Numbered from the stretch's first letter, positions 33,926-45,004 are shown. The stretch: DNA of 64,000 nt from an uncultured Bdellovibrionales bacterium (GCA_964609855.1 CAZSTB010000003.1:4305-68304), one strand, 5' to 3'. A program made the numbers and translations. The notes: generated from the letters alone by a model not told the origin.

Positions 33926-35128
33926 CTACTGCCTTATCAATGTGTTATACCTCTGGATGGTTTTATTGTAAAGCCCCACGATATCATTGAGTTTTTTTAC
34001 GTCTTTTTTATATTGCTCGAATAATTTATTATATTTTTCAACCAAGGCGTTATATTTTTCAAATTCTTGCCTTTTTTCATATTTATTCAGATCGTTTTTC
34101 CACTCAGTTAACTTTTCCTCGGCCGCAGCAACAATTTTCTTCTGTTCATTGATCATCGGCAATGTTTTCTCGAATGAAATTTTCAACTGATTTATTTCCG
34201 CGATTATCTTTTCAGTTTTTATGATGCCCAGATATTCCCTGCCTTCAGTTTTCTGCAAAATTACAACCTGACCCAACTGCCCGACAGCCGCCAAGTTCGC
34301 TTGATCCAAACTTAGTTCAGTCAATTTGGCGACATTTACAGTTTTATTGCTCGCAGAGTCGAAACTTGGAACAATCCCAATCTTATTTCCCTCCGCCGTG
34401 GTTTCGCTGTAGCAATAACCACTTCCATATGTTGAATTAGCTTTCGGACACTGAATTCCGATTGCCATATGATTATCATCCGGATATGTGAAGATTGCAG
34501 TTCCGTATCCCATAACCCTAAGCAAAGCAATTGCCAACAAACTCTTGTCGCTGCACACGCCCAACTGCTGAAAAAGAACTTCATAGGGATAACGCATCGT
34601 TTCATTGGAATTTTTAGCCAAAATATTTTCAGCTTTTGCATCGTCATACGGAATCGATTGCACGAATGCCATCGTCAAATCAACAAGCTCATCGTCAGTT
34701 AACTTTTGCTTAACGCCAAGCTGGCGAATTTTTTCCACCAGTTCAATAATCGTTTTATCCTCCTGATCGATCTTTAAAAAATTTCCATAATACTCCTCTT
34801 CCCAATTTTGTGGCAAAGTTCCCACATAGGAGAATGATTTAGGTTGATTTTTGTAAAATTCATTAACAGACTCATACAAATTCTCCGTAATTGAATATTT
34901 GACACCTTTATATTCCCATTGGTAAACGCGTTCCTTGGCGCCTTCTAATTGTGGGAAAGGCTTTTTAAAGATAATTTTCTCCGCCTCACCATCGGTAAAA
35001 TTTTCAATGACTGAAAAAACTTGCGATGAGGAAAGATTTCTTTTTTCAGCAATAAGCCAAAGTGCGCCTGCTATTAAAAGCAGCTCTAGGGAAATAATTA
35101 AAGTTTTTTTAAGCAAATTTTTCAGCAT
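33926..35128 (-). CDS. membrane-anchored protein with transglutaminase-like cysteine protease core and C-terminal coiled coil
   Basis: GVCSDKSLLAIALLRVMGY ... NHMAIGI ... (Cys/His/Asp arrangement of the transglutaminase-like fold); N-terminal TM. Confidence 0.4.
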   Translation of the reverse strand: MLKNLLKKTLIISLELLLIAGALWLIAEKRNLSSSQVFSVIENFTDGEAEKIIFKKPFPQLEGAKERVYQWEYKGVKYSITENLYESVNEFYKNQPKSFSYVGTLPQNWEEEYYGNFLKIDQEDKTIIELVEKIRQLGVKQKLTDDELVDLTMAFVQSIPYDDAKAENILAKNSNETMRYPYEVLFQQLGVCSDKSLLAIALLRVMGYGTAIFTYPDDNHMAIGIQCPKANSTYGSGYCYSETTAEGNKIGIVPSFDSASNKTVNVAKLTELSLDQANLAAVGQLGQVVILQKTEGREYLGIIKTEKIIAEINQLKISFEKTLPMINEQKKIVAAAEEKLTEWKNDLNKYEKRQEFEKYNALVEKYNKLFEQYKKDVKKLNDIVGLYNKTIQRYNTLIRQ

Positions 35129-36317: not shown

Positions 36318-36662
36318 ATCACACCTCCTTTTTAGTAAACCAAATTTTTAAAAAACTATCCTTATTATTATAAGCAAACAACTTGCAGCAAAATAAAAAA
36401 CCAGCTTTCGCTGGAATAATTTCAATACTACTTTTTGCTTAATTCTATGAAATATTACCCAACGAAAATTTGCCTCCGACGAGGAGAATAATGAGTCCAA
36501 ACAGGACAATCACAAATTTTTTTGTTGAGTTATTTTTCATATATCATCATTATAAACATTTTTCGCGGCCTGTCAATAACAATGAGCTTAGATAACATCT
36601 CGTATCTTGTATCGCGTATCTTGTATATCGTATTTTATACATTGCATTTATACACCATACAT

Positions 36663-36697
36663 AATACTAGATACTAGATACTAGATACTAGATACTT
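36663..36697. repeat. tandem heptamer repeat (TACTAGA)x4-5 downstream of paralog A
   Basis: atactagatactagatactagatactagatac. Confidence 0.85.
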
Positions 36698-36707
36698 TAT
36701 ACATGCA

Positions 36708-37835
36708 TCATTCCACACTTAATCCGCTCGGAGAAGCAGGAGCAACGACATCGAGAATGGAATCACTAGTAGTAATCACAACATCATCAATCTGCACAGG
36801 ATAACTGACATTCTCAGTGTACAAATGTGAACCCACATGATGATTATCCATTAATTCAACATAGTTCCAACCATTTTCAACACTTCCTCCTGACATGACA
36901 AATTCCATATTTGTCTTGTAGAACATGCGCACATCGTCCAAACTAACCTCTTGAATTCCATCTGCTGCGCCTGGTGCGGAATTCATTTTTACATGATAGG
37001 TATATTTATGCCATTCTCCATCCATCCTGATAGTGTCTACAACAGGATTACTGGAGGGCAGTGCATATGTATAACGATTATTTAAGAGGATATTCTGATA
37101 AGGATAATAACTGCTACTATTATACCAAGCATCCACGGTTTCATCATAAACTTCAGGAGTTCCATTTGAAGTTTGCGAACGGTTGTAATACTGCATAAAA
37201 TAAGGCCTGCTAGAATAAAAGCTTCCCATGTGTGGCAGCCACGCAGGGTGTGTAGGCCTAGCCTCAACCGAATGATCATCCGCCAAGGATGTTGAAACGG
37301 TCAACTCGCCATTAAACCTGGCGATATAAAAAGCCTTCGTTATACCGGAATAATTAATGTCAGACCCATCCCACCAATCCATATCACTTGGATATTTCAC
37401 CCACATCTCCACCCAAAGCTCAGGATATCCCGCTTCGCCGAAGTACATCGTAAGGGGACTGCCTCCAGCCCACCCAGTACTATATGTAGGATTACCCTTG
37501 GCTGATTCAAAATTGTAAGTCAAACCTCTTGAGCTTTCTCTACCTTGTCTCGCTCCAATAGTAGCCATTGGGCCTTGAGAAACTGCAAGAGTTGAAGGCG
37601 AAGTTCTGACCCATGAATTGGGATGCAACCACTGCCCATTCATCTTTTTGGGAGGATCCAGAGTTCTTGATGGATTGCCCGTCCAAGCATTAGGAAAACC
37701 ATTTGATATCCTAGGCGCAGACCAGTCAGCCGCATCTTCAAAGTTAGTCTCCCAAACAACAGCTGCATTTGCAAAATTTTGCAGCATGAAAAATATTGCA
37801 AGTAGGAAGAAAAATTTTAGAATTTGTTTTTGCAT
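36708..37835 (-). CDS. secreted beta-rich (jelly-roll/concanavalin-like?) protein, paralog A; C-terminus ...APASPSGLSVE
   Basis: signal peptide MQKQILKFFFLLAIFFMLQNFANA; shared motifs HVKMNSAPGAADG and LDDV; TGA stop directly after the conserved C-terminal motif. Confidence 0.6.
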   Translation of the reverse strand: MQKQILKFFFLLAIFFMLQNFANAAVVWETNFEDAADWSAPRISNGFPNAWTGNPSRTLDPPKKMNGQWLHPNSWVRTSPSTLAVSQGPMATIGARQGRESSRGLTYNFESAKGNPTYSTGWAGGSPLTMYFGEAGYPELWVEMWVKYPSDMDWWDGSDINYSGITKAFYIARFNGELTVSTSLADDHSVEARPTHPAWLPHMGSFYSSRPYFMQYYNRSQTSNGTPEVYDETVDAWYNSSSYYPYQNILLNNRYTYALPSSNPVVDTIRMDGEWHKYTYHVKMNSAPGAADGIQEVSLDDVRMFYKTNMEFVMSGGSVENGWNYVELMDNHHVGSHLYTENVSYPVQIDDVVITTSDSILDVVAPASPSGLSVE

Positions 37836-37951
37836 TTCTTAATTAAGCCATTTTTATTATTGTTTCGCGTTTAACGTTACAAACCCTTATGAACTCGTAA
37901 CTTTTATATATTTTCTATTTTTGCGTTTATACTTAATAACTCATACATGCA

Positions 37952-39028
37952 TCATTCCACTCCTAATCCTGTCGGTGCTGCAGGAGCAGCGGAATCAAAC
38001 AGACCTATCACATAATCAGGAGCAAGTTGGGTTGTAGATACTACAAAGTCATCGAGTCTCATCTGATGATGAAGTGTATCAGAATCATAATAATTAGAGG
38101 TGCCAGCCATCGCCATATTGCCGAATAATACGGCGGAGTTTATTTTCCTGGTCAGATCAGTCACCACTATCTGGTCATAATATCCCCATGATGCTACAGC
38201 AGGATTATATGACGCCATATTGTTATCTGGAATTATCCACGCCTCAACGATACCGTCTGAATTTGGGGTGCTGTCCGTAAAAGTGTTCAACTTTATATGG
38301 AATTGAACAAAATTCCAATGTCCCACAACATATGCGTAGTTAGTCGCAGATGGAGAATATCCGCCGTGAGTCCAAGCATAATCACCTGAATTTGGACAAC
38401 CAACAACTCCATTGCTAGGGCCAAATATTCCCAGATAAATTCTCCAGACACCATTTCCATCAGTTACCAATTCGAAATATTGTTGCTGTCCTCTTTTATA
38501 CCCAAATTCATCGCATGTACTGTTGGGATTTTCAGTAGCAATATTGACTCCCGTATTGGAATGCATAATTTTCCAGGGACTCATGCCCGCACCTGGATTG
38601 AAGTCAGCAGGAACATACAGCCATGATTGGTACCAAATTTCATCATAGCCCGACGTTCTTCCATTACTCAAAATCAAATCGAATGACCCACCATTGATGT
38701 ACTGACTATATTCATAATCAGCAGCTAGCGATTTTCCCGAGTTGCCATGATAAACATTTTGGTCGATAGAATATAAGGGAGGAGTTAGCGCATTGCTTCC
38801 AGCTCCCTGCGCCCACGAATACCAGCAAGGCAAGTTTGTTTCATAATCACAAGGTCCGCTTGGCATATCACCGATAGTGCTGGGCCAATCATGGCTCAAA
38901 TTATCCGAAGTGCTTTGCCACGTATAGGAATTGAAGTTATCCTCAAAAACAATTGCGGCCTGAGAAAAACCAGGCACCGCAAAAAATATCGCGAGCAGTA
39001 AGAAAAATTTTAGAATTTGTTTTTTCAT
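37952..39028 (-). CDS. secreted beta-rich protein, paralog B; C-terminus ...APAAPTGLGVE
   Basis: likely start MKKQILKFFLLLAIFFAVPGFSQA at ATG 39026-39028 (the ORF track extends to a TTG at 39070); family motifs; TGA stop. Confidence 0.6.
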   Translation of the reverse strand: MKKQILKFFLLLAIFFAVPGFSQAAIVFEDNFNSYTWQSTSDNLSHDWPSTIGDMPSGPCDYETNLPCWYSWAQGAGSNALTPPLYSIDQNVYHGNSGKSLAADYEYSQYINGGSFDLILSNGRTSGYDEIWYQSWLYVPADFNPGAGMSPWKIMHSNTGVNIATENPNSTCDEFGYKRGQQQYFELVTDGNGVWRIYLGIFGPSNGVVGCPNSGDYAWTHGGYSPSATNYAYVVGHWNFVQFHIKLNTFTDSTPNSDGIVEAWIIPDNNMASYNPAVASWGYYDQIVVTDLTRKINSAVLFGNMAMAGTSNYYDSDTLHHQMRLDDFVVSTTQLAPDYVIGLFDSAAPAAPTGLGVE

Positions 39029-39046
39029 TAAATACCTAAAAATCTT

Positions 39047-39068
39047 GTTACGTAGCATGCTACGTAAC
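39047..39068. promoter_or_regulatory. perfect 22-bp palindrome GTTACGTAGCATGCTACGTAAC 19-40 nt upstream of the paralog B start
   Basis: self-complementary sequence; a related palindrome is upstream of paralog D. Confidence 0.6.
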
Positions 39069-39233
39069 AACTCGCTAATTTTTATCTTATAATTATACCA
39101 CTTTTTATTGGTATTTCGTATTTCTTATACTTAACATTACAAACCTTATGAACTTGCAACGTTATAAACTTTTATGTATTTTGCATTTTTGAATTTATAC
39201 TTCATACATAATACCAAATACTTTATACTAAAG

Positions 39234-40295
39234 TTATTCCACCCCCAATCCTGTCGGTGCGGCCGGTGCAGTAATATCAGCCGTGCCAATGATATAATCT
39301 TTTCCAATAAAAGAATCACTAATCACAAAATCATCCAAAAATATTTTCATCTCCGTGTTCTCGTAGATGGTTCCTGTTTGATTTATGGTTATGTTATCCA
39401 GTGCATTGACCCAATTCCAACCAGGAGAAAGGCCATTTACTGAATCGGCGCCGACCCAAGCAAGCCCAGTCCGCTTATGATGCTGGTAAGAATTTATGCC
39501 ATCATCAACCCACACCTCCCATTCGCCATCCGCAACGCCCGGCGCGCTGTTCATCTTTACTCTGAATTCATAACTATGCCAACCACCATCCGATGGCATT
39601 GGCAGAGTATAAAAATCTTCCGCCGAAGCATCGCCAGCGCCAGGATCAAAAACGCGCGCGCCAAGAAAATGGACAGCATTGAGATCTGGCGGATTTTGAT
39701 AACCAGTGCCCGTGTTTACTGCAACCTCAGGATAGAAAGTTGGCGCCTGATAACTGGGAGCTAAAAATTGCTGCGGATTATTTACCAAGGATGGCTCCAG
39801 TTGATATCTGGAAATCCTGGCAATCTTATGATAATTCCCATTATTAATGCCTTCATTATTTATAGTCGGCCAATGAAAAGTTACTGGATCATATTTGTAA
39901 TATCCCCGCATATATAATTCTTGATATCCAGCATTTCCAAGATATAAATCCAGACCACCTCCCGCCCAGGTATGTACAGCCTCAACTGCAAAGGTGATGC
40001 CTTTTCCGGAATTTCGAGCGCCGCCAGCATCCAATTTCCAAGTTGGACCCCTGTCCCATCTTGGAATAGCTGCACTGTAAGCAGTCCAATTTTGCGGTGG
40101 GGGCTGACTTGGACCGCCTGGTTTATCTTTCCAGGTATTTGGCCAACCAGCGTTCGTGCTCGGATAAGACTCCGCCGATTGCCAATCGGGAGAGTCATTG
40201 AAATTATCCTCAAAGATAATTGCGGCCTGGGAAAAATTTGGCAGCAAGAAAAACATCGCGAGAAAAAGAAAAGTTTTCAGCATTTGCTTTATCAT
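39234..40295 (-). CDS. secreted beta-rich protein, paralog C; C-terminus ...APAAPTGLGVE
   Basis: signal peptide; EFRVKMNSAPGVADGEWEVWVDDG; TAA stop after the motif. Confidence 0.6.
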   Translation of the reverse strand: MIKQMLKTFLFLAMFFLLPNFSQAAIIFEDNFNDSPDWQSAESYPSTNAGWPNTWKDKPGGPSQPPPQNWTAYSAAIPRWDRGPTWKLDAGGARNSGKGITFAVEAVHTWAGGGLDLYLGNAGYQELYMRGYYKYDPVTFHWPTINNEGINNGNYHKIARISRYQLEPSLVNNPQQFLAPSYQAPTFYPEVAVNTGTGYQNPPDLNAVHFLGARVFDPGAGDASAEDFYTLPMPSDGGWHSYEFRVKMNSAPGVADGEWEVWVDDGINSYQHHKRTGLAWVGADSVNGLSPGWNWVNALDNITINQTGTIYENTEMKIFLDDFVISDSFIGKDYIIGTADITAPAAPTGLGVE

Positions 40296-40476
40296 TTCTT
40301 AATTATACCACTTTTTATTGGTATTTCCTATTTCGTATTTGGTATCTCGTATCTTATATATTGTACTCGTGTTTTGTATTCAACTTTATGAATCTTACGA
40401 ACTTTATAAGCTTTCTTGCATTCTACATCTTTTGTATTTATACATCATACATAATACTAGATACTTTATACTTGAG

Positions 40477-41688
40477 TCACTCCACACTTAGTCCAGTTGG
40501 CACAGCGGGGGCAATAATATCAGCCTCTAAATTACCAATAACATAATCAAAAGGCAACCTACCATCTTGCGGGGAATTGGACCAAAGAGCCGGCTCTGTC
40601 TGAATAGAATCGGCACTCAAAGGTTCATAGGCGATAACTGGGCCGTAATAAATCTGTTGAGCCCCATCATAAAAGCGGCTCATATTGTCAGGCATCCAGA
40701 TGTTATTCCATTCCGGCGTGGCATGCAGAGCTCCAGTATTTAGCCATGGAATATCAACTGTTTTGTAGTGAGTCCAAGTTGTTCCAACTTCAGTACTATT
40801 ATCAATCCACATCTCAAATTCGCCGTCCATGACGCCTGGTGCACTATTCATCTTTACGCGATATTCCAAAGTGTGCCAATCACCGTCTTCTGGGAGATAT
40901 GGCCCAGGATTACCCCCAAGGGTTGGGTTATAGCCATCGTAAGGAGCATATCTATATTCAGGATCGACACGAAAAGTAACCTTAGCTGCTGTATTTTTCC
41001 TGTACGTTATTGGGTTAGCATAATAATAGTAAGGATTTTCCAAAGTGTCAGGAATTGCAATCGGCATAGTATAACAAGTCGGATTCGAAGGTTGAGTATT
41101 GCATCCTTGAGTATTAAACATACTTTCAACAGAAGGATTGGCCCAAAAGCGCCCTATCCTTATATTCTTTATCATACTAATCTGATTTCCAGTTGAGACT
41201 CCTGGTCCGCATCCTGGACAATCAGCCCATTGTCAAACGGGTCCAAACTTAACTTTCATGCGCACATACATCTCATGATATCCTTCAACCTTAGGAAATA
41301 ATTTTCCCATCCTTGCCCCATGCCACGCTCCATAATCCCCTTCAGTCACAACACTGTAAATCAAACATTTTTCTTGATTAATGACAGAAGGATCGCTGCA
41401 ATTTACATTGTTAGCAATATTCAATGGCGAGATGGTAGTAGCCTCATTAGCAAACCCCGTCCAACCCGAAGGAGGACAGCTAGTGCTACATGTTCCGCCC
41501 TGATCAGCTGCAAAACTGATTGGCCAATCATGTTGAGTTATCCCAGAACTCCAATCAGGCGTGTCCTGCCAACCTTCTTCAAAAAAAACAGGCTTAGGCG
41601 GATTAGCCGTTGGAATAGCGTAAGCAAAATTTGGTAACATGAAAAATGCAGCAAGAAATAAATATAATTTTAAATTCATATTTTTCAT
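40477..41688 (-). pseudogene. secreted beta-rich protein, paralog D, interrupted by one in-frame TGA (41233-41235); C-terminus ...APAVPTGLSVE
   Basis: ORFs 41233-41694 and 40477-41175 are in the same frame, separated only by a TGA; the N-terminal part has the signal peptide and the C-terminal part has the family motifs. Confidence 0.55.
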
Positions 41689-41704
41689 ATTCAATTTCCT
41701 AAAT

Positions 41705-41725
41705 TACGTAGCATCATGCTACGTA
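41705..41725. promoter_or_regulatory. 21-bp palindrome TACGTAGCAT-C-ATGCTACGTA 17-37 nt upstream of the paralog D start
   Basis: 10-bp arms with a single central base; same core as 39047-39068. Confidence 0.6.
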
Positions 41726-41835
41726 GCAAATTTCACGCAACTTCGCGAGATAATAAATTTTTCTAATGCCTTGATTATACCATAAAAATCCAACAACTAC
41801 TATTATAAATTGATTTTTAAATACGGATTTTAAAA

Positions 41836-42685: not shown

Positions 42686-43552
42686 TCAATTGCTTATTGA
42701 TTTGCATTTTAAGGTTGGGCTTTGGCATTCATAAATAATATCCCCTCGCTCATCAGTTCTGAAAACACTTATCCCGCGCTGCATCAATCTTTTCAATATA
42801 TCAGCATGCGGATGACCGTATGAATTATTCTTGCCAACCGAAACGATAGCATCACGAGGCGCAACCCTATCTAGGAAATCATCGCTTGAAGAATATTTAC
42901 TACCATGATGGGAAACTTTCAAGACATCAGATTTTATATCAATTCCGCGCGCCAGAATTTCTTTTTCCTGTTCGCCAGGAAGGTCGCCTGTCAGCAGAAA
43001 ACTATTTTCTCCAAAGCTTAATCTCATCACCACACTGCCAGCATTCGTATCCTTAGTATTTTCAACTATTTTTTCAAAAGGAAAGATGATTTCCACTTGA
43101 GCATCTTCGCTTAAAATAATCTTTTGTCCAACTTGAGCTTCCACGATCTGAGACCCCTCAGCTGCAACAGCTTCTTCCAAAGCCTTGAATGTCTGCGACT
43201 CGCTTCTTGCATTAGTTTTCATGACCGCAGAAATTTCATGGGTCCTGAAAATTTCAATCAGTCCCCCAATGTGATCTGCGTCAGGGTGAGTTTCAATAAC
43301 TGCTTCGATTTTTCTATCCCAAAAAGGAATATGCCTGCCTAGTTTTTCCAAGAGCAGTTTCCCATCTTTTCCACCGTCAATCAAGATCTGCTTTGAACCT
43401 TGAGAAATCAAAATACTATCGCCTTGTCCGACATCGAGAAATACGACCCGCATTTCCCCTTTTTTACCATGCAAAATAATAAAAGCTAGAATTACAGCCA
43501 GCAATAGCATTAAAATAAGCACACTATATGTTAATTTTCTCTTATTGAGCAT
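42686..43552 (-). CDS. ComEC/Rec2-related metallo-beta-lactamase domain protein (membrane-anchored)
   Basis: VVFLDVGQGDS ... HPDADHIGG ... VSHHGS motifs; N-terminal TM. Confidence 0.7.
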   Translation of the reverse strand: MLNKRKLTYSVLILMLLLAVILAFIILHGKKGEMRVVFLDVGQGDSILISQGSKQILIDGGKDGKLLLEKLGRHIPFWDRKIEAVIETHPDADHIGGLIEIFRTHEISAVMKTNARSESQTFKALEEAVAAEGSQIVEAQVGQKIILSEDAQVEIIFPFEKIVENTKDTNAGSVVMRLSFGENSFLLTGDLPGEQEKEILARGIDIKSDVLKVSHHGSKYSSSDDFLDRVAPRDAIVSVGKNNSYGHPHADILKRLMQRGISVFRTDERGDIIYECQSPTLKCKSISN

Positions 43553-43675
43553 TCATATTTAATTTTCAATAATCAGTTTTCAATTTACAATGAATTCTCA
43601 ATTAAAAAATTATCAAACTAAAATTTTAATTGAAAATTGCAAATTTAATGAAAATTGTGAATTGAAAATTGAAAA

Positions 43676-45004
43676 TTATTTATCATCCCTCCTATTTAAA
43701 TATTTATCCAAGAGATAAATCGACAACGATAATATTATATAATAAACCACCACAAATAACACTGACACTTTTTCAATCTCCACACTTGCCCAAGAAAATC
43801 GTGACAAAAGGTGGATCAGTGAAATCTCATAGTGAAGCGGCAAATAAGTGAGCCACGCTAAAATCAGAGAAAGTGGAGAAAAAATAAATTCTGCCAGTGC
43901 CGTCAGAAATGCCAAGAACATTGAAAGTGGCACTATCGGCAAAATCAAAACGTTCGCCAGCAGCGAAACAAGCGAAGCGGTGTGAAAATTGTATGTGATT
44001 ATGGGCAGCACAAAAATCTGCGCACTGAGCGAAAGCGCGATTATTTCGGAAATTCCCAGCGCCTTATGTTTTTTGATGAAACTTTTCTCCCAAAATGGAG
44101 AAGTTGAAACTATTCCCAGTGTCGCCAGAAAAGAAAGCTGGAAACCGATATCATATCTGAGCAAAAGCGGATTCAAAAAGAGCATGACTGCTCCTGCAAA
44201 AATAATCGCGTTTTCCGAGGAGGCCAGTCGCCCATGCTTCATAGCCCAAAGCAAAATAAAGTACTCCGCTATGATGGTCACATTGTATCCGGAAACTGCC
44301 ACGATGTGGGTCATGCCGGTGCGCGAAAAATCATTTTGAATTTCTTTGGAAAAACCACTTGAACCACCAAGCAGAATTCCTCCCGCCAAGACGCTTTCAG
44401 GACTGGGGATGACGTCATTTATATTTTTCTCTAGCAAATTTTTCAATCCAAAGATCTGTGTCAAAAAAATATTCCCGCCGTACTCTCCGATTTTTCTGAA
44501 ATTTTTATCCTCGCAGGAATACAAAACTCCTTCTTTTGCCATATACATCATGTAATCAAAATCGGAATCTTCTTTATTTTCAATTCTCTTGGCCCGGCAT
44601 AAAACTTCAAGCAAATCTCCATATTGAAAAACCGGGTACATGGGAACCTGCAGAAGCATCACTATCTTTTCTTTTTCCAATTCAACAATGAGATTCCGCC
44701 CAAAAGAAGAATCTGAACTTTTTATCACCAACGCGCGCCCGCTAAAATTTACATTTTCAAAAACCGCATCATTGATTTCTTTCAAGCTGAAACTTGTTCG
44801 CCAAACACCGACAATAAAAAAGACAAAAATAAAAGCGACCAAAGTCGCATGTCCGTTCTTATAGAAAATTGTCATCAGCAACACTGAAAGAACGAGAATT
44901 GCCAATAAATAATTTCCACTTATTTCAAAAAATGACCGTAGAAAAACACCAAGAATAAATGCGAGCAATAAAAACAGCAAGATACGCGACTTTGATATAT
45001 CCAT
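43676..45004 (-). CDS. comEC: ComEC/Rec2 competence channel domain protein (DUF4131 + competence TM domain)
   Basis: polytopic membrane protein with the ComEC-like arrangement; sits directly upstream of the separate MBL-domain ORF. Confidence 0.65.
   Translation of the reverse strand: MDISKSRILLFLLLAFILGVFLRSFFEISGNYLLAILVLSVLLMTIFYKNGHATLVAFIFVFFIVGVWRTSFSLKEINDAVFENVNFSGRALVIKSSDSSFGRNLIVELEKEKIVMLLQVPMYPVFQYGDLLEVLCRAKRIENKEDSDFDYMMYMAKEGVLYSCEDKNFRKIGEYGGNIFLTQIFGLKNLLEKNINDVIPSPESVLAGGILLGGSSGFSKEIQNDFSRTGMTHIVAVSGYNVTIIAEYFILLWAMKHGRLASSENAIIFAGAVMLFLNPLLLRYDIGFQLSFLATLGIVSTSPFWEKSFIKKHKALGISEIIALSLSAQIFVLPIITYNFHTASLVSLLANVLILPIVPLSMFLAFLTALAEFIFSPLSLILAWLTYLPLHYEISLIHLLSRFSWASVEIEKVSVLFVVVYYIILSLSIYLLDKYLNRRDDK

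Follow-up and report, generated by a model that had tools for sequence, protein, structure and literature searches.

Four consecutive genes on the minus strand of a 64,000-nucleotide stretch of DNA from an uncultured Bdellovibrionales bacterium (GCA_964609855.1 CAZSTB010000003.1:4305-68304; the whole stretch is called the window below) encode secreted proteins that end, directly before the stop codon, in the same short tail. This tail, (A/P)PxxP(T/S)GLx(V/I)x-COOH, is a widespread, selected and modular C-terminal element, or tag, in Parcubacteria-type bacteria of the candidate phyla radiation (CPR), and it is so even if the function proposed here is wrong. By its position it corresponds to strand A of an FN3 (fibronectin type III) domain, and genes beside tail arrays of related bacteria encode FN3 domains that lack strand A. 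The explanation to which we give an even chance is a split FN3: the tail of the enzyme would donate the missing strand in trans to acceptors that are anchored in the membrane, linked to a dockerin or bound to the wall. More tentatively, we suggest that a naturally split FN3 would serve Parcubacteria-type CPR bacteria for docking in general, as a minimal cellulosome-like display of enzymes by trans strand complementation. From the genomic patterns and the predicted folds we infer physical binding, the identity of the partners and an enzymatic activity of the tagged proteins.

Conservation of the C-terminal tail

The proteins A to D of the window terminate with APA(A/S/V)P(T/S)GL(S/G)VE, the next codon being TAA in C and TGA in the other three, and a six-frame scan of the window found the motif at no other place. 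A preliminary description of this DNA had proposed a common C-terminal ending with a varying stop codon, and comparison of the four copies confirmed it; the final glutamate, described there as invariant, is invariant within this genome, but orthologs have E, Q, I, T, M, S, L, N or V at this position. The codons of the tail differ synonymously among the four window copies, thus the protein is what is conserved, and a recent homogenisation of the DNA is not the whole cause. Recent gene conversion as the sole cause of the tail identity was rejected for the same synonymous differences. To examine selection on the tail, 20 genes that carry it were taken from the window and from four more loci, which represent three further lineages. 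All follow the pattern (A/P)-P-x-x-P-(T/S)-G-L-x-(V/I)-x-stop with invariant residues P2, P5, G7 and L8, which are encoded by four proline codons (P2), three proline codons (P5), four glycine codons (G7) and six leucine codons (L8). The stop codon, TAA in 12, TGA in 6 and TAG in 2 genes, is always placed exactly four codons past G-L. The breadth of synonymous codon use, together with the fixed stop, reveals purifying selection at the amino acid level on the sequence of the tail as well as on the position of the C-terminus.

The relation to FN3 became apparent from homologs of the window proteins. P0008, P0009, P0010 and P0039 run on at the place of the tail into a complete FN3 domain ('GPPPSPTGVTAKAVSSSSAQVSW...'), and their Pfam fn3 matches begin at profile position 2-3, where the tail sits. 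The tail is therefore located where the full FN3 starts in the homologs and corresponds to FN3 strand A, in agreement with the earlier impression that it resembled the first strand of such a domain. The window proteins do not contain a complete seven-strand FN3 (PF00041), only a segment equivalent to about profile positions 1-10 that ends with GLxVx. Orthologs that continue past the tail had been regarded in the preliminary description as a sign of truncation or of assembly artefacts; homologs that continue into a full FN3 do exist, but no artefact underlies the truncation, the same terminal codon recurring under purifying selection in more than 100 genes from many samples. In the AlphaFold2 monomer model of protein C the tail is disordered, with a mean pLDDT of 47 for residues 341-350 and of 36 for residues 351-353, and judged by this model it does not seem to pack on its own protein.

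The C-termini of 180 members of the jelly-roll protein family to which A to D belong were surveyed. The tail was present in 30 of them (slightly permissive pattern), accompanied by many looser variants of the form 'PxxPxNLRIx'. Other members carry a full FN3, with or without further domains, a dockerin (P0015, P0143 and others) or a short ending '..L.PPTF'. In a sister clade (P0017, P0018, P0021-P0024, P0026-P0030, P0036) the proteins end with ...(I/L)x(L/I)xPP(T/S/K)F-COOH, which, from the sequences, may be another type of tag, for a different partner.

Occurrence of the tail on unrelated proteins

The tail is spread over proteins of unrelated folds. In a locus of Candidatus Wolfebacteria (L002/L004), nine consecutive genes have the same signal peptide and the same tail. 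Besides a PL14-like protein, this array encodes tail-bearing proteins outside the jelly-roll family, a right-handed beta-helix of 517 amino acids (Pfam Beta_helix) and a protein of 573 amino acids; a third protein of 649 amino acids appears beta-helix-like by eye and has no Pfam match. The signal peptide of these unrelated proteins is also that of the window array. In related CPR loci at least 57 distinct secreted proteins with several unrelated folds carry the tail, a count to be read as a lower bound. When these 57 proteins are aligned, a conservation of at least 90 % is reached at the start methionine and otherwise only by columns within the tail. Signal-peptide-like N-termini were present in 48 of the 57, and Pfam assigned Beta_helix (7 proteins), Apiosidase, Laminin_G_3, NosD, PcRGLX, HepII_C, DUF4962 and PL14, the majority remaining without a match. 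A short C-terminal recognition tag, one of the early suggestions for the window proteins, is thus what the wider data support: the tail closes many unrelated secreted proteins and is linked to genes for strand-A-less FN3 proteins.

Within a genome (L013, L040, L060, L067 and the window), unrelated tail-bearing proteins have nearly identical signal peptides and last tail residues, and these differ between genomes. All four tails in L040 are TTPPSAPSGLSVS, those of L013 end throughout with ...VQ and those of the window with VE. Such genome-specific endings could originate from concerted evolution or from co-adaptation to a partner specific for the genome.

FN3 proteins without strand A

Directly 3' of the Wolfebacteria tail array are two genes for FN3 proteins without strand A, of 120 and 652 amino acids. 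The smaller protein consists of a transmembrane helix, a short polar linker and an FN3 beginning with strand B ('GGEAILSWNAN...GYRVYYG'). In the larger protein, encoded in L002, the signal peptide is cut just before 'GTATLTWNAN...', after which come CHB_HEX_C repeats, a single complete FN3 and a PG_binding_1 domain. The family of such putative acceptors (P0044-P0067, proteins of related loci and not of the window) comprises three kinds: (i) proteins of 105-145 amino acids with an N-terminal membrane helix and an FN3 from strand B onwards, (ii) secreted proteins with strand B located 2-3 residues past the signal-peptidase site, followed by a dockerin, and (iii) proteins secreted in the same way with subsequent CHB_HEX_C or immunoglobulin-like domains and a peptidoglycan-binding domain. 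In these proteins Pfam fn3 aligns only from profile position 7-15 onwards, in many cases from within the signal peptide. In 22 aligned anchors and in the metagenome anchor loci the hydrophobic segment is separated from strand B by about 6-15 residues or by a polar linker. The AlphaFold2 model of P0049 (pLDDT 81.6) has a transmembrane helix at residues 2-23, and the six strands behind it are B, C, C', E, F and G, with no strand A; its best structural matches are FN3 domains. Residues 29-112 of P0049 align to residues 314-393 of P0009, that is, just past strand A of the full-length FN3 of P0009, with 29 % identity and an E-value of 3e-10. According to this split point, tail and acceptor add up to one complete FN3 that is divided at the A/B junction.

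Several acceptors are connected to dockerins. The gene behind that of P0049 on L009, a short Logan contig, encodes a protein of 167 amino acids composed of a strand-A-less FN3 and a dockerin. The exact P0049 sequence is also recorded on an NCBI contig of 81,517 bp, as long as the only contig with protein C; judged by this equal length, the genome of the window seems to possess such a pair outside the 64-kb window. Dockerin_1 scored above the Pfam threshold in the second acceptors of L009, L024 and L057 and weakly in that of L017, where the following gene encodes a cohesin (PF00963, E 9e-9). The dockerin (PF00404) and cohesin coordinates in these CPR-type contigs are 1792-2295 in L009, 9059-9592 in L024, 10322-12895 in L057 and 10401-13209 in L017; in the literature searched on cohesin and dockerin in Parcubacteria no report was found. 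Within the same enzyme family an enzyme may be combined with a dockerin (P0015, P0143), with the tail, or with a full FN3 and a subsequent dockerin-like calcium-loop region (P0039, P0101); the latter region of P0101 has a weak Pfam dockerin match.

Some proteins unite both parts. P0066 (118 amino acids) is a strand-A-less FN3 with a strand-A-like tail (…NKPSAPSGCSIK) at its own end. P0119 and P0123 consist of an enzyme, a full FN3 and a further strand-A-like tail, which is strict in P0119 (…APPAAPSGLVVQ) and lacks the second proline in P0123 (…PPAAATGLVVK). Chaining from head to tail along this principle is conceivable.

Linkage of tail and acceptor genes

Tail genes and acceptor genes are strongly linked. 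The linkage was assessed from the anchor side: a metagenome scan with the anchor alignment only yielded 79 loci, in which all open reading frames (ORFs) of at least 100 amino acids were screened with the strict tail expression P..P.G[LMIV].[VIL].$. Eighty-three ORFs had a strict tail, 83 of the 646 ORFs on the strand of the anchor and none of the 381 on the opposite strand. They were distributed over 32 of the 79 loci. Among the 67 loci with at least 400 nt of sequence upstream of the anchor, a tail gene ended within 450 nt upstream of it in 26 (39 %). The tail arrays beside anchors comprise up to eight genes, with five to eight in L035, L043, L060 and L067. A second strand-A-less FN3 gene, recognised by AxA followed by G(T/S)A.(L/V).W, lies directly 3' of the anchor in 30 of 59 eligible loci, and dockerin-like motifs were found in 12 of these. 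The same arrangement was seen in four loci obtained from protein look-ups (L010-L013), in which the tail closes the genes located just upstream of the anchor: ...PPAAPTGLSVI and ...TGLAVS in L010/L011, ...PPAAPSGLRVI and ...TGLSII in L012, and ...GL(T/A)VQ in three genes of L013. The preliminary description had raised the question of a protease, sortase-like or secretion gene that accompanies the tail in relatives; the recurrent neighbours are the strand-A-less FN3 genes, and no candidate enzyme recurs.

Anchors with (I/V)SW in strand B (L051, L052/L054, L055) adjoin tails with G-V-x-V, and most anchors with L-S-W adjoin G-L tails. This may possibly be a compensatory pair across the proposed A/B interface, in numbers too small to weigh.

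Proposed docking and alternative explanations

In the docking that we propose, A to D would be Sec-secreted jelly-roll enzymes of a Wolfebacteria-like CPR bacterium, each equipped with the tag. The tag would act as strand A of an FN3 whose remaining six strands are encoded in separate genes. Once the enzyme has been exported by Sec, its flexible tail would form an edge strand paired with strand B of the acceptor FN3, the alternating leucine and valine of the tail would cover the exposed core of the acceptor, and the FN3 fold would be completed by trans strand complementation. The type of acceptor would set the tether, to the membrane, to the peptidoglycan wall or, via the dockerin, to a cohesin scaffold. 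An enzyme with a full FN3 and a dockerin-like region would then equal, in one polypeptide, an enzyme with tail plus an acceptor of strand-A-less FN3 and dockerin. A split FN3 is physically plausible in view of the folding order of the domain, which folds around strands B, C, E and F while A and G pack last (PMC4330816), of the FN3 scaffold with swapped N-terminal strands in PDB 4m6a, one of the structural matches of P0049, and of the donor-strand exchange shown for Pam pili in other CPR classes (bioRxiv 10.64898/2026.03.03.709456).

Several points weigh against docking. The binding of tail and acceptor is read from genomic patterns, with indirect support from the matching split point and the gene linkage. 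The window array has no acceptor within 22 kb, and a search of the six-frame translation of the 64-kb window with a hidden Markov model from six FN3 seeds and with the expression GYxVYY detected no acceptor gene. Elsewhere, the tail arrays of L097/L098 are followed by MacB/FtsX and a lone tail gene in L096 lies among uvrA/uvrC, with no acceptor within 3.5-7 kb. An adjacent acceptor is common without being obligatory, and it is not the rule as seen from the tail side; of the anchor loci, about half have no tail gene nearby. On the non-CPR contig L015, related small strand-A-less FN3 lipoproteins have no tail neighbours; they stand alone, so this FN3 subtype may be stable without a donated strand. 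Moreover, the anchor-centred loci share ancestry, and their linkage counts therefore overstate independence. With the inferred binding, the non-obligatory adjacency, the tail-less anchors, L015 and the common ancestry taken into account, our confidence in docking stays balanced between acceptance and rejection.

One of the two main rivals is a remnant acting in cis: the tail would be what is left, linker and strand A, of a lost C-terminal FN3 and would be kept for protection of the C-terminus, for O-glycosylation or for solubility. Homologs with the full FN3 exist, the wider family has its many looser 'PxxPxNLRIx' ends, and Pro/Ser/Thr linkers of secreted glycanases are frequently glycosylated. 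From a remnant one would not, however, expect a spread over several folds of unrelated kind with an identical position of the stop, nor invariance while the protein bodies drift to 26-39 % identity, nor a position directly upstream of a strand-A-less FN3 in 39 % of the informative anchor loci, and the AlphaFold2 model is free of cis packing. We consider this origin of the tail unlikely.

No likelier is the other main rival, a sorting or processing signal that is read by an enzyme. A transpeptidase or protease would cleave the tail or link the protein by a covalent bond to the wall or S-layer, similar to LPXTG and sortase, and the FN3 genes would just share the genomic island. The extreme C-terminal position with a fixed distance to the stop, the pairing with a conserved and dedicated-looking signal peptide, and the non-obligatory adjacency of acceptors are compatible with such a signal, as is a membrane-anchored transglutaminase-like protein encoded 1.6 kb downstream of the array (33926-35128). 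But no candidate enzyme recurs beside the arrays, where the strand-A-less FN3 genes are the only recurrent neighbours. The tail has neither a transmembrane segment nor a charged stop-transfer sequence, unlike the signals for sortase, exosortase and rhombosortase, NCBIfam and Pfam hold no sorting-signal model for it, and the exact match between the end of the tail and the start of the acceptor would have to be a coincidence.

Very unlikely is an explanation at the DNA level, in which a 5' module of promoter and signal peptide and a 3' module of tail and spacer serve as homology arms for recombination, duplication or gene conversion, with the motif as a by-product. The spacers of the array do have blocks in common, promoters and 7-nt repeats, and signal peptides and tail ends are more alike within than between genomes (VE in the window, VQ in L013, TTPPSAPSGLSVS in L040). 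Yet the tail codons differ synonymously, both among the window copies and across the 20 genes, and the motif is retained between distant lineages with unrelated flanking DNA; recombination may shape the arrays, but it leaves the selection at the amino acid level unexplained. Artefact or decay, in the form of pseudogenes, assembly errors or TGA as a sense codon, is effectively excluded, as is recoding: gene D has an in-frame TGA and three of the four genes end in TGA, but C ends in TAA, the commonest stop across the loci, the frames close 8-17 codons past the TGA with no FN3-coding sequence downstream, more than 100 genes, from samples and assemblers independent of each other, have the same end, and the other window genes are intact under genetic code 11. 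Recoding of TGA or read-through into a hidden FN3 was rejected for the TAA of C, the early closure of the frames and the absence of FN3-like sequence from all frames of the window.

The jelly-roll body of the proteins

The AlphaFold2 model of protein C, based on 41 homologs, is a beta-jelly-roll with a pLDDT of 88.2 and a pTM of 0.86. In a Foldseek comparison with the PDB the best match was the glucuronan lyase 2zzj of polysaccharide lyase (PL) family 20 with an E-value of 7e-10, and further matches were 5gmt and 3a0n of PL14 and 6kzk (Aly36B) of PL36, the top range covering E-values from 7e-10 to 7e-7. The TM-scores were moderate (0.45/0.63). Since calreticulin, GH16 and generic concanavalin A-like folds match the model too, the likeness to lyases is a result at the level of the fold only. 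On the sequence level, Pfam PL14 (PF21294) aligned to the window proteins over the region WHxYE.RVKMNSAPG with 13-17 bits, below the cut-off of 27, while the distant family member P0107 passes the threshold of PF14099 (Polysacc_lyase) with 33 versus 29.9 bits. The NCBIfam search of the window proteins gave no match, and a profile search with them against the PDB sequences gave none at E<=1. The family alignment has invariant N, D, K and H columns. The family is large, as evident from 3,499 cluster representatives at E<=1e-3 in an exhaustive profile search, 347 of them at E<=1e-30; a genome search with an alignment of 12 sequences led to five genome loci. A jelly-roll fold, possibly of a polysaccharide lyase, had been guessed at in the preliminary description, and the model of C with its PL20, PL14 and PL36 matches is in line with this guess. 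The bodies of A to D add new members to the PL14/PL20-like jelly-rolls, a known class of folds, and may act as lyases. With the lyases of PL14, PL20, PL36 and PF14099 they share the fold and a weak sequence similarity over the WHxYE.RVKMNSAPG strand region, but they differ in scoring below every Pfam threshold and in having no sequence match in the PDB.

Organization of the array and its surroundings

The features of the array are compiled in Table 1. ORF calls placed the four genes consecutively on the minus strand, as in the preliminary description, and the paralog alignment gave pairwise protein identities of 26-39 %. The nearest relatives of the window proteins are found in Candidatus Wolfebacteria: the ortholog of A is P0032 of this group, and C has the same sequence as P0001 (100 % identity) and, in tblastn, 98 % protein identity with a gene in the complete genome of Candidatus Wolfebacteria GW2011_GWB1_47_1. 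The alignment also corroborated the common signal peptide and core motifs noticed before. The signal peptides of 24 residues are nearly identical, M(Q/K/I)KQ(I/M)LK.F(F/L).LA(I/M)FF..(P/Q)(N/G)F(A/S).A, with AxA at the end, and the core motifs shared by A to D are WHxYE(F/Y)(R/H)VKMNSAPG..DG and (L/I)DD(V/F)V. For gene B, a start at the TTG at 39070 is unlikely for its position inside the leader palindrome.

Gene D had been taken for an intact reading frame; this is wrong, as an in-frame TGA was overlooked. In its local context (GPV*QWAD), the codon represents a single G-to-A change from TGG and splits the gene into ORFs at 41233-41694 and 40477-41175. Otherwise D retains signal peptide, core motifs and tail. 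The internal TGA could indicate a young pseudogene, a sequencing error, a leaky stop or read-through of UGA by tRNA-Trp. Recoding does not follow from it, because TGA is also the stop right after the tail in A, B and D and the frames soon close again.

The spacers of the array contain common blocks, including CATACATAATACTAGATACTTTATAC (on the gene strand GTATAAAGTATCTAGTATTATGTATG); this block had been quoted in the preliminary description, and the conservation of the spacers proved correct. The extended -10 elements are putative promoters, recognised solely by their match to the consensus. In A and C the short distance between this element and the ATG suggests leaderless or near-leaderless mRNAs. 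B and D have longer leaders, each with a palindrome of 18-21 bp that could be an operator or a leader hairpin; no further site of TACGTAGCATGCTACGTA or its variant exists in the window beyond these two leaders. Repeats with a period of 7 nt occupy each spacer of the array between stop codons and promoters, with the units ATACTAG, ATCTCGT and GTATTTC (plus strand).

The genes flanking the array in the window are housekeeping genes: ndk, comEC in two ORFs, fusA and a gene for an M50 peptidase. ComEC (minus strand, 42686-45004) is divided into a Competence domain of 442 amino acids (43676-45004) and a metallo-beta-lactamase domain of 288 amino acids (42686-43552). The transglutaminase-like protein downstream of the array, encoded on the minus strand, has 400 amino acids, with a membrane helix at the N-terminus, a C-terminus resembling a coiled coil and, as transglutaminase-like domain, DUF553 (E 1.5e-5). 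A role in dedicated processing was rejected, since the protein does not recur beside the arrays in other loci, and for this reason it is probably unrelated to the array.

Table 1 Features of the tail-protein array and its spacers, in window positions
Feature	Position	Strand	Description	Basis
Gene A	36708-37835	-	375-aa secreted PL14/PL20-like jelly-roll protein with C-terminal tail; stop TGA	ORF, alignment
Gene B	37952-39028	-	358-aa paralog; ATG at 39028; stop TGA	ORF, alignment
Gene C	39234-40295	-	353-aa paralog; stop TAA	ORF, AlphaFold2 model, Foldseek against PDB
Gene D	40477-41688	-	paralog broken by in-frame TGA; terminal stop TGA	ORF, alignment
In-frame TGA of D	41233-41235	-	first Trp of the family W-x-W motif, TGG to TGA	family consensus YLKYDxxWxW
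Signal peptide of A	37764-37835	-	MQKQILKFFFLLAIFFMLQNFANA	alignment; cleavage site predicted from AxA
Signal peptide of B	38957-39028	-	24 codons	alignment
Signal peptide of C	40224-40295	-	24 codons	alignment
Signal peptide of D	41617-41688	-	24 codons	alignment
Tail of A	36711-36743	-	APASPSGLSVE, FN3 strand-A tag	
Tail of B	37955-37987	-	APAAPTGLGVE	
Tail of C	39237-39269	-	APAAPTGLGVE	
Tail of D	40480-40512	-	APAVPTGLSVE	
Putative extended -10 element before A	37842-37850	-	TGGCTTAAT; 6 nt from ATG of A	
Putative extended -10 element before B	39092-39100	-	TGGTATAAT	consensus match
Putative extended -10 element before C	40302-40310	-	TGGTATAAT; 6 nt from ATG of C	
Putative extended -10 element before D	41774-41782	-	TGGTATAAT	consensus match
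Palindrome in leader of B	39049-39066	.	perfect, 18 bp, TACGTAGCATGCTACGTA	0 expected by chance
Palindrome in leader of D	41705-41725	.	variant, 21 bp	0 expected by chance
7-nt-period repeats after A	36597-36704	.	ATACTAG and ATCTCGT units, plus strand	
Similar 7-nt repeats in other spacers	39197-39232, 40321-40352, 40437-40473			

Comparison with known systems

CPR bacteria (Patescibacteria) are tiny and mostly uncultured episymbionts whose surface organisation and glycan feeding are largely unknown. If docking by a split FN3 is true, it would explain how cells without an outer membrane keep their exoenzymes near, and (A/P)PxxP(T/S)GLx(V/I)x-COOH would become a sequence rule for a part of the surface-displayed CPR secretome. 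It would tie the CPR to assemblies of the cohesin-dockerin type and add a new natural case in which a fold is completed in trans. The tag would be found on dozens of secreted enzymes for glycan degradation, and the natural peptide-protein pair might offer a compact tool for protein engineering and tagging. The tag is not described in the Pfam and NCBIfam libraries, and the literature searched (CPR, FN3, dockerin/cohesin, donor strand, lyase) contained no description; the only related item was the report on Pam pili of other CPR classes.

Known C-terminal sorting systems, LPXTG/sortase, PEP-CTERM/exosortase and the type IX secretion system, likewise place a short conserved element at the C-terminus of many unrelated secreted proteins of one genome, and some C-terminal sorting signals are paired with a special signal peptide (YSIRK). 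In contrast to LPXTG, PEP-CTERM, GlyGly-CTERM and type IX signals, the window tail ends four residues past G-L and has no hydrophobic helix or basic stretch; the C-terminal domain of the type IX system, with about 80 amino acids, is far longer. Furthermore, no cognate sortase-like gene is linked to the tail, and the tail matches no model in NCBIfam or Pfam. Engineered splits are similar in that one excised strand of an Ig- or FN3-like domain binds the remainder again in trans, as in SpyTag/SpyCatcher derived from CnaB2 or in the strand-swapped FN3 4m6a. These are, however, laboratory constructs or crystal dimers, and SpyTag forms an isopeptide bond, of which there is no sign here.

With the donor-strand systems, the chaperone-usher pili and the Pam pili of CPR bacteria, the proposed docking would share a beta-sandwich that is short of one strand and is filled by another polypeptide; the Pam pili also share the CPR hosts and membrane-anchored components (bioRxiv 10.64898/2026.03.03.709456). 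Donor-strand pili differ in polymerising pilins that lack the C-terminal G strand and in using chaperones, whereas here the N-terminal A strand of FN3 would be donated by enzymes, with no polymer implied. The tail and acceptor proteins have no sequence relationship to these pili, and Pfam families of pilins, PapD-like chaperones and ushers are absent from the window and the linked loci. The cohesin-dockerin pairs of cellulosomes, too, equip secreted carbohydrate-active enzymes of many folds with a common C-terminal docking module that binds noncovalently to an anchored or scaffold partner. Dockerins and a cohesin occur in the same CPR loci, and some members of the enzyme family have a dockerin in place of the tail; in the window proteins Pfam found no dockerin. 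Unlike the dockerin, a calcium-binding domain of about 60 residues, the enzyme module here is a peptide of 11 residues, its putative receptor is an incomplete FN3, and the proposed binding would complete a fold instead of bringing two folded domains into contact. Taken as a whole, the system, which has the defining features of neither, resembles cohesin-dockerin in function and donor-strand complementation in mechanism.

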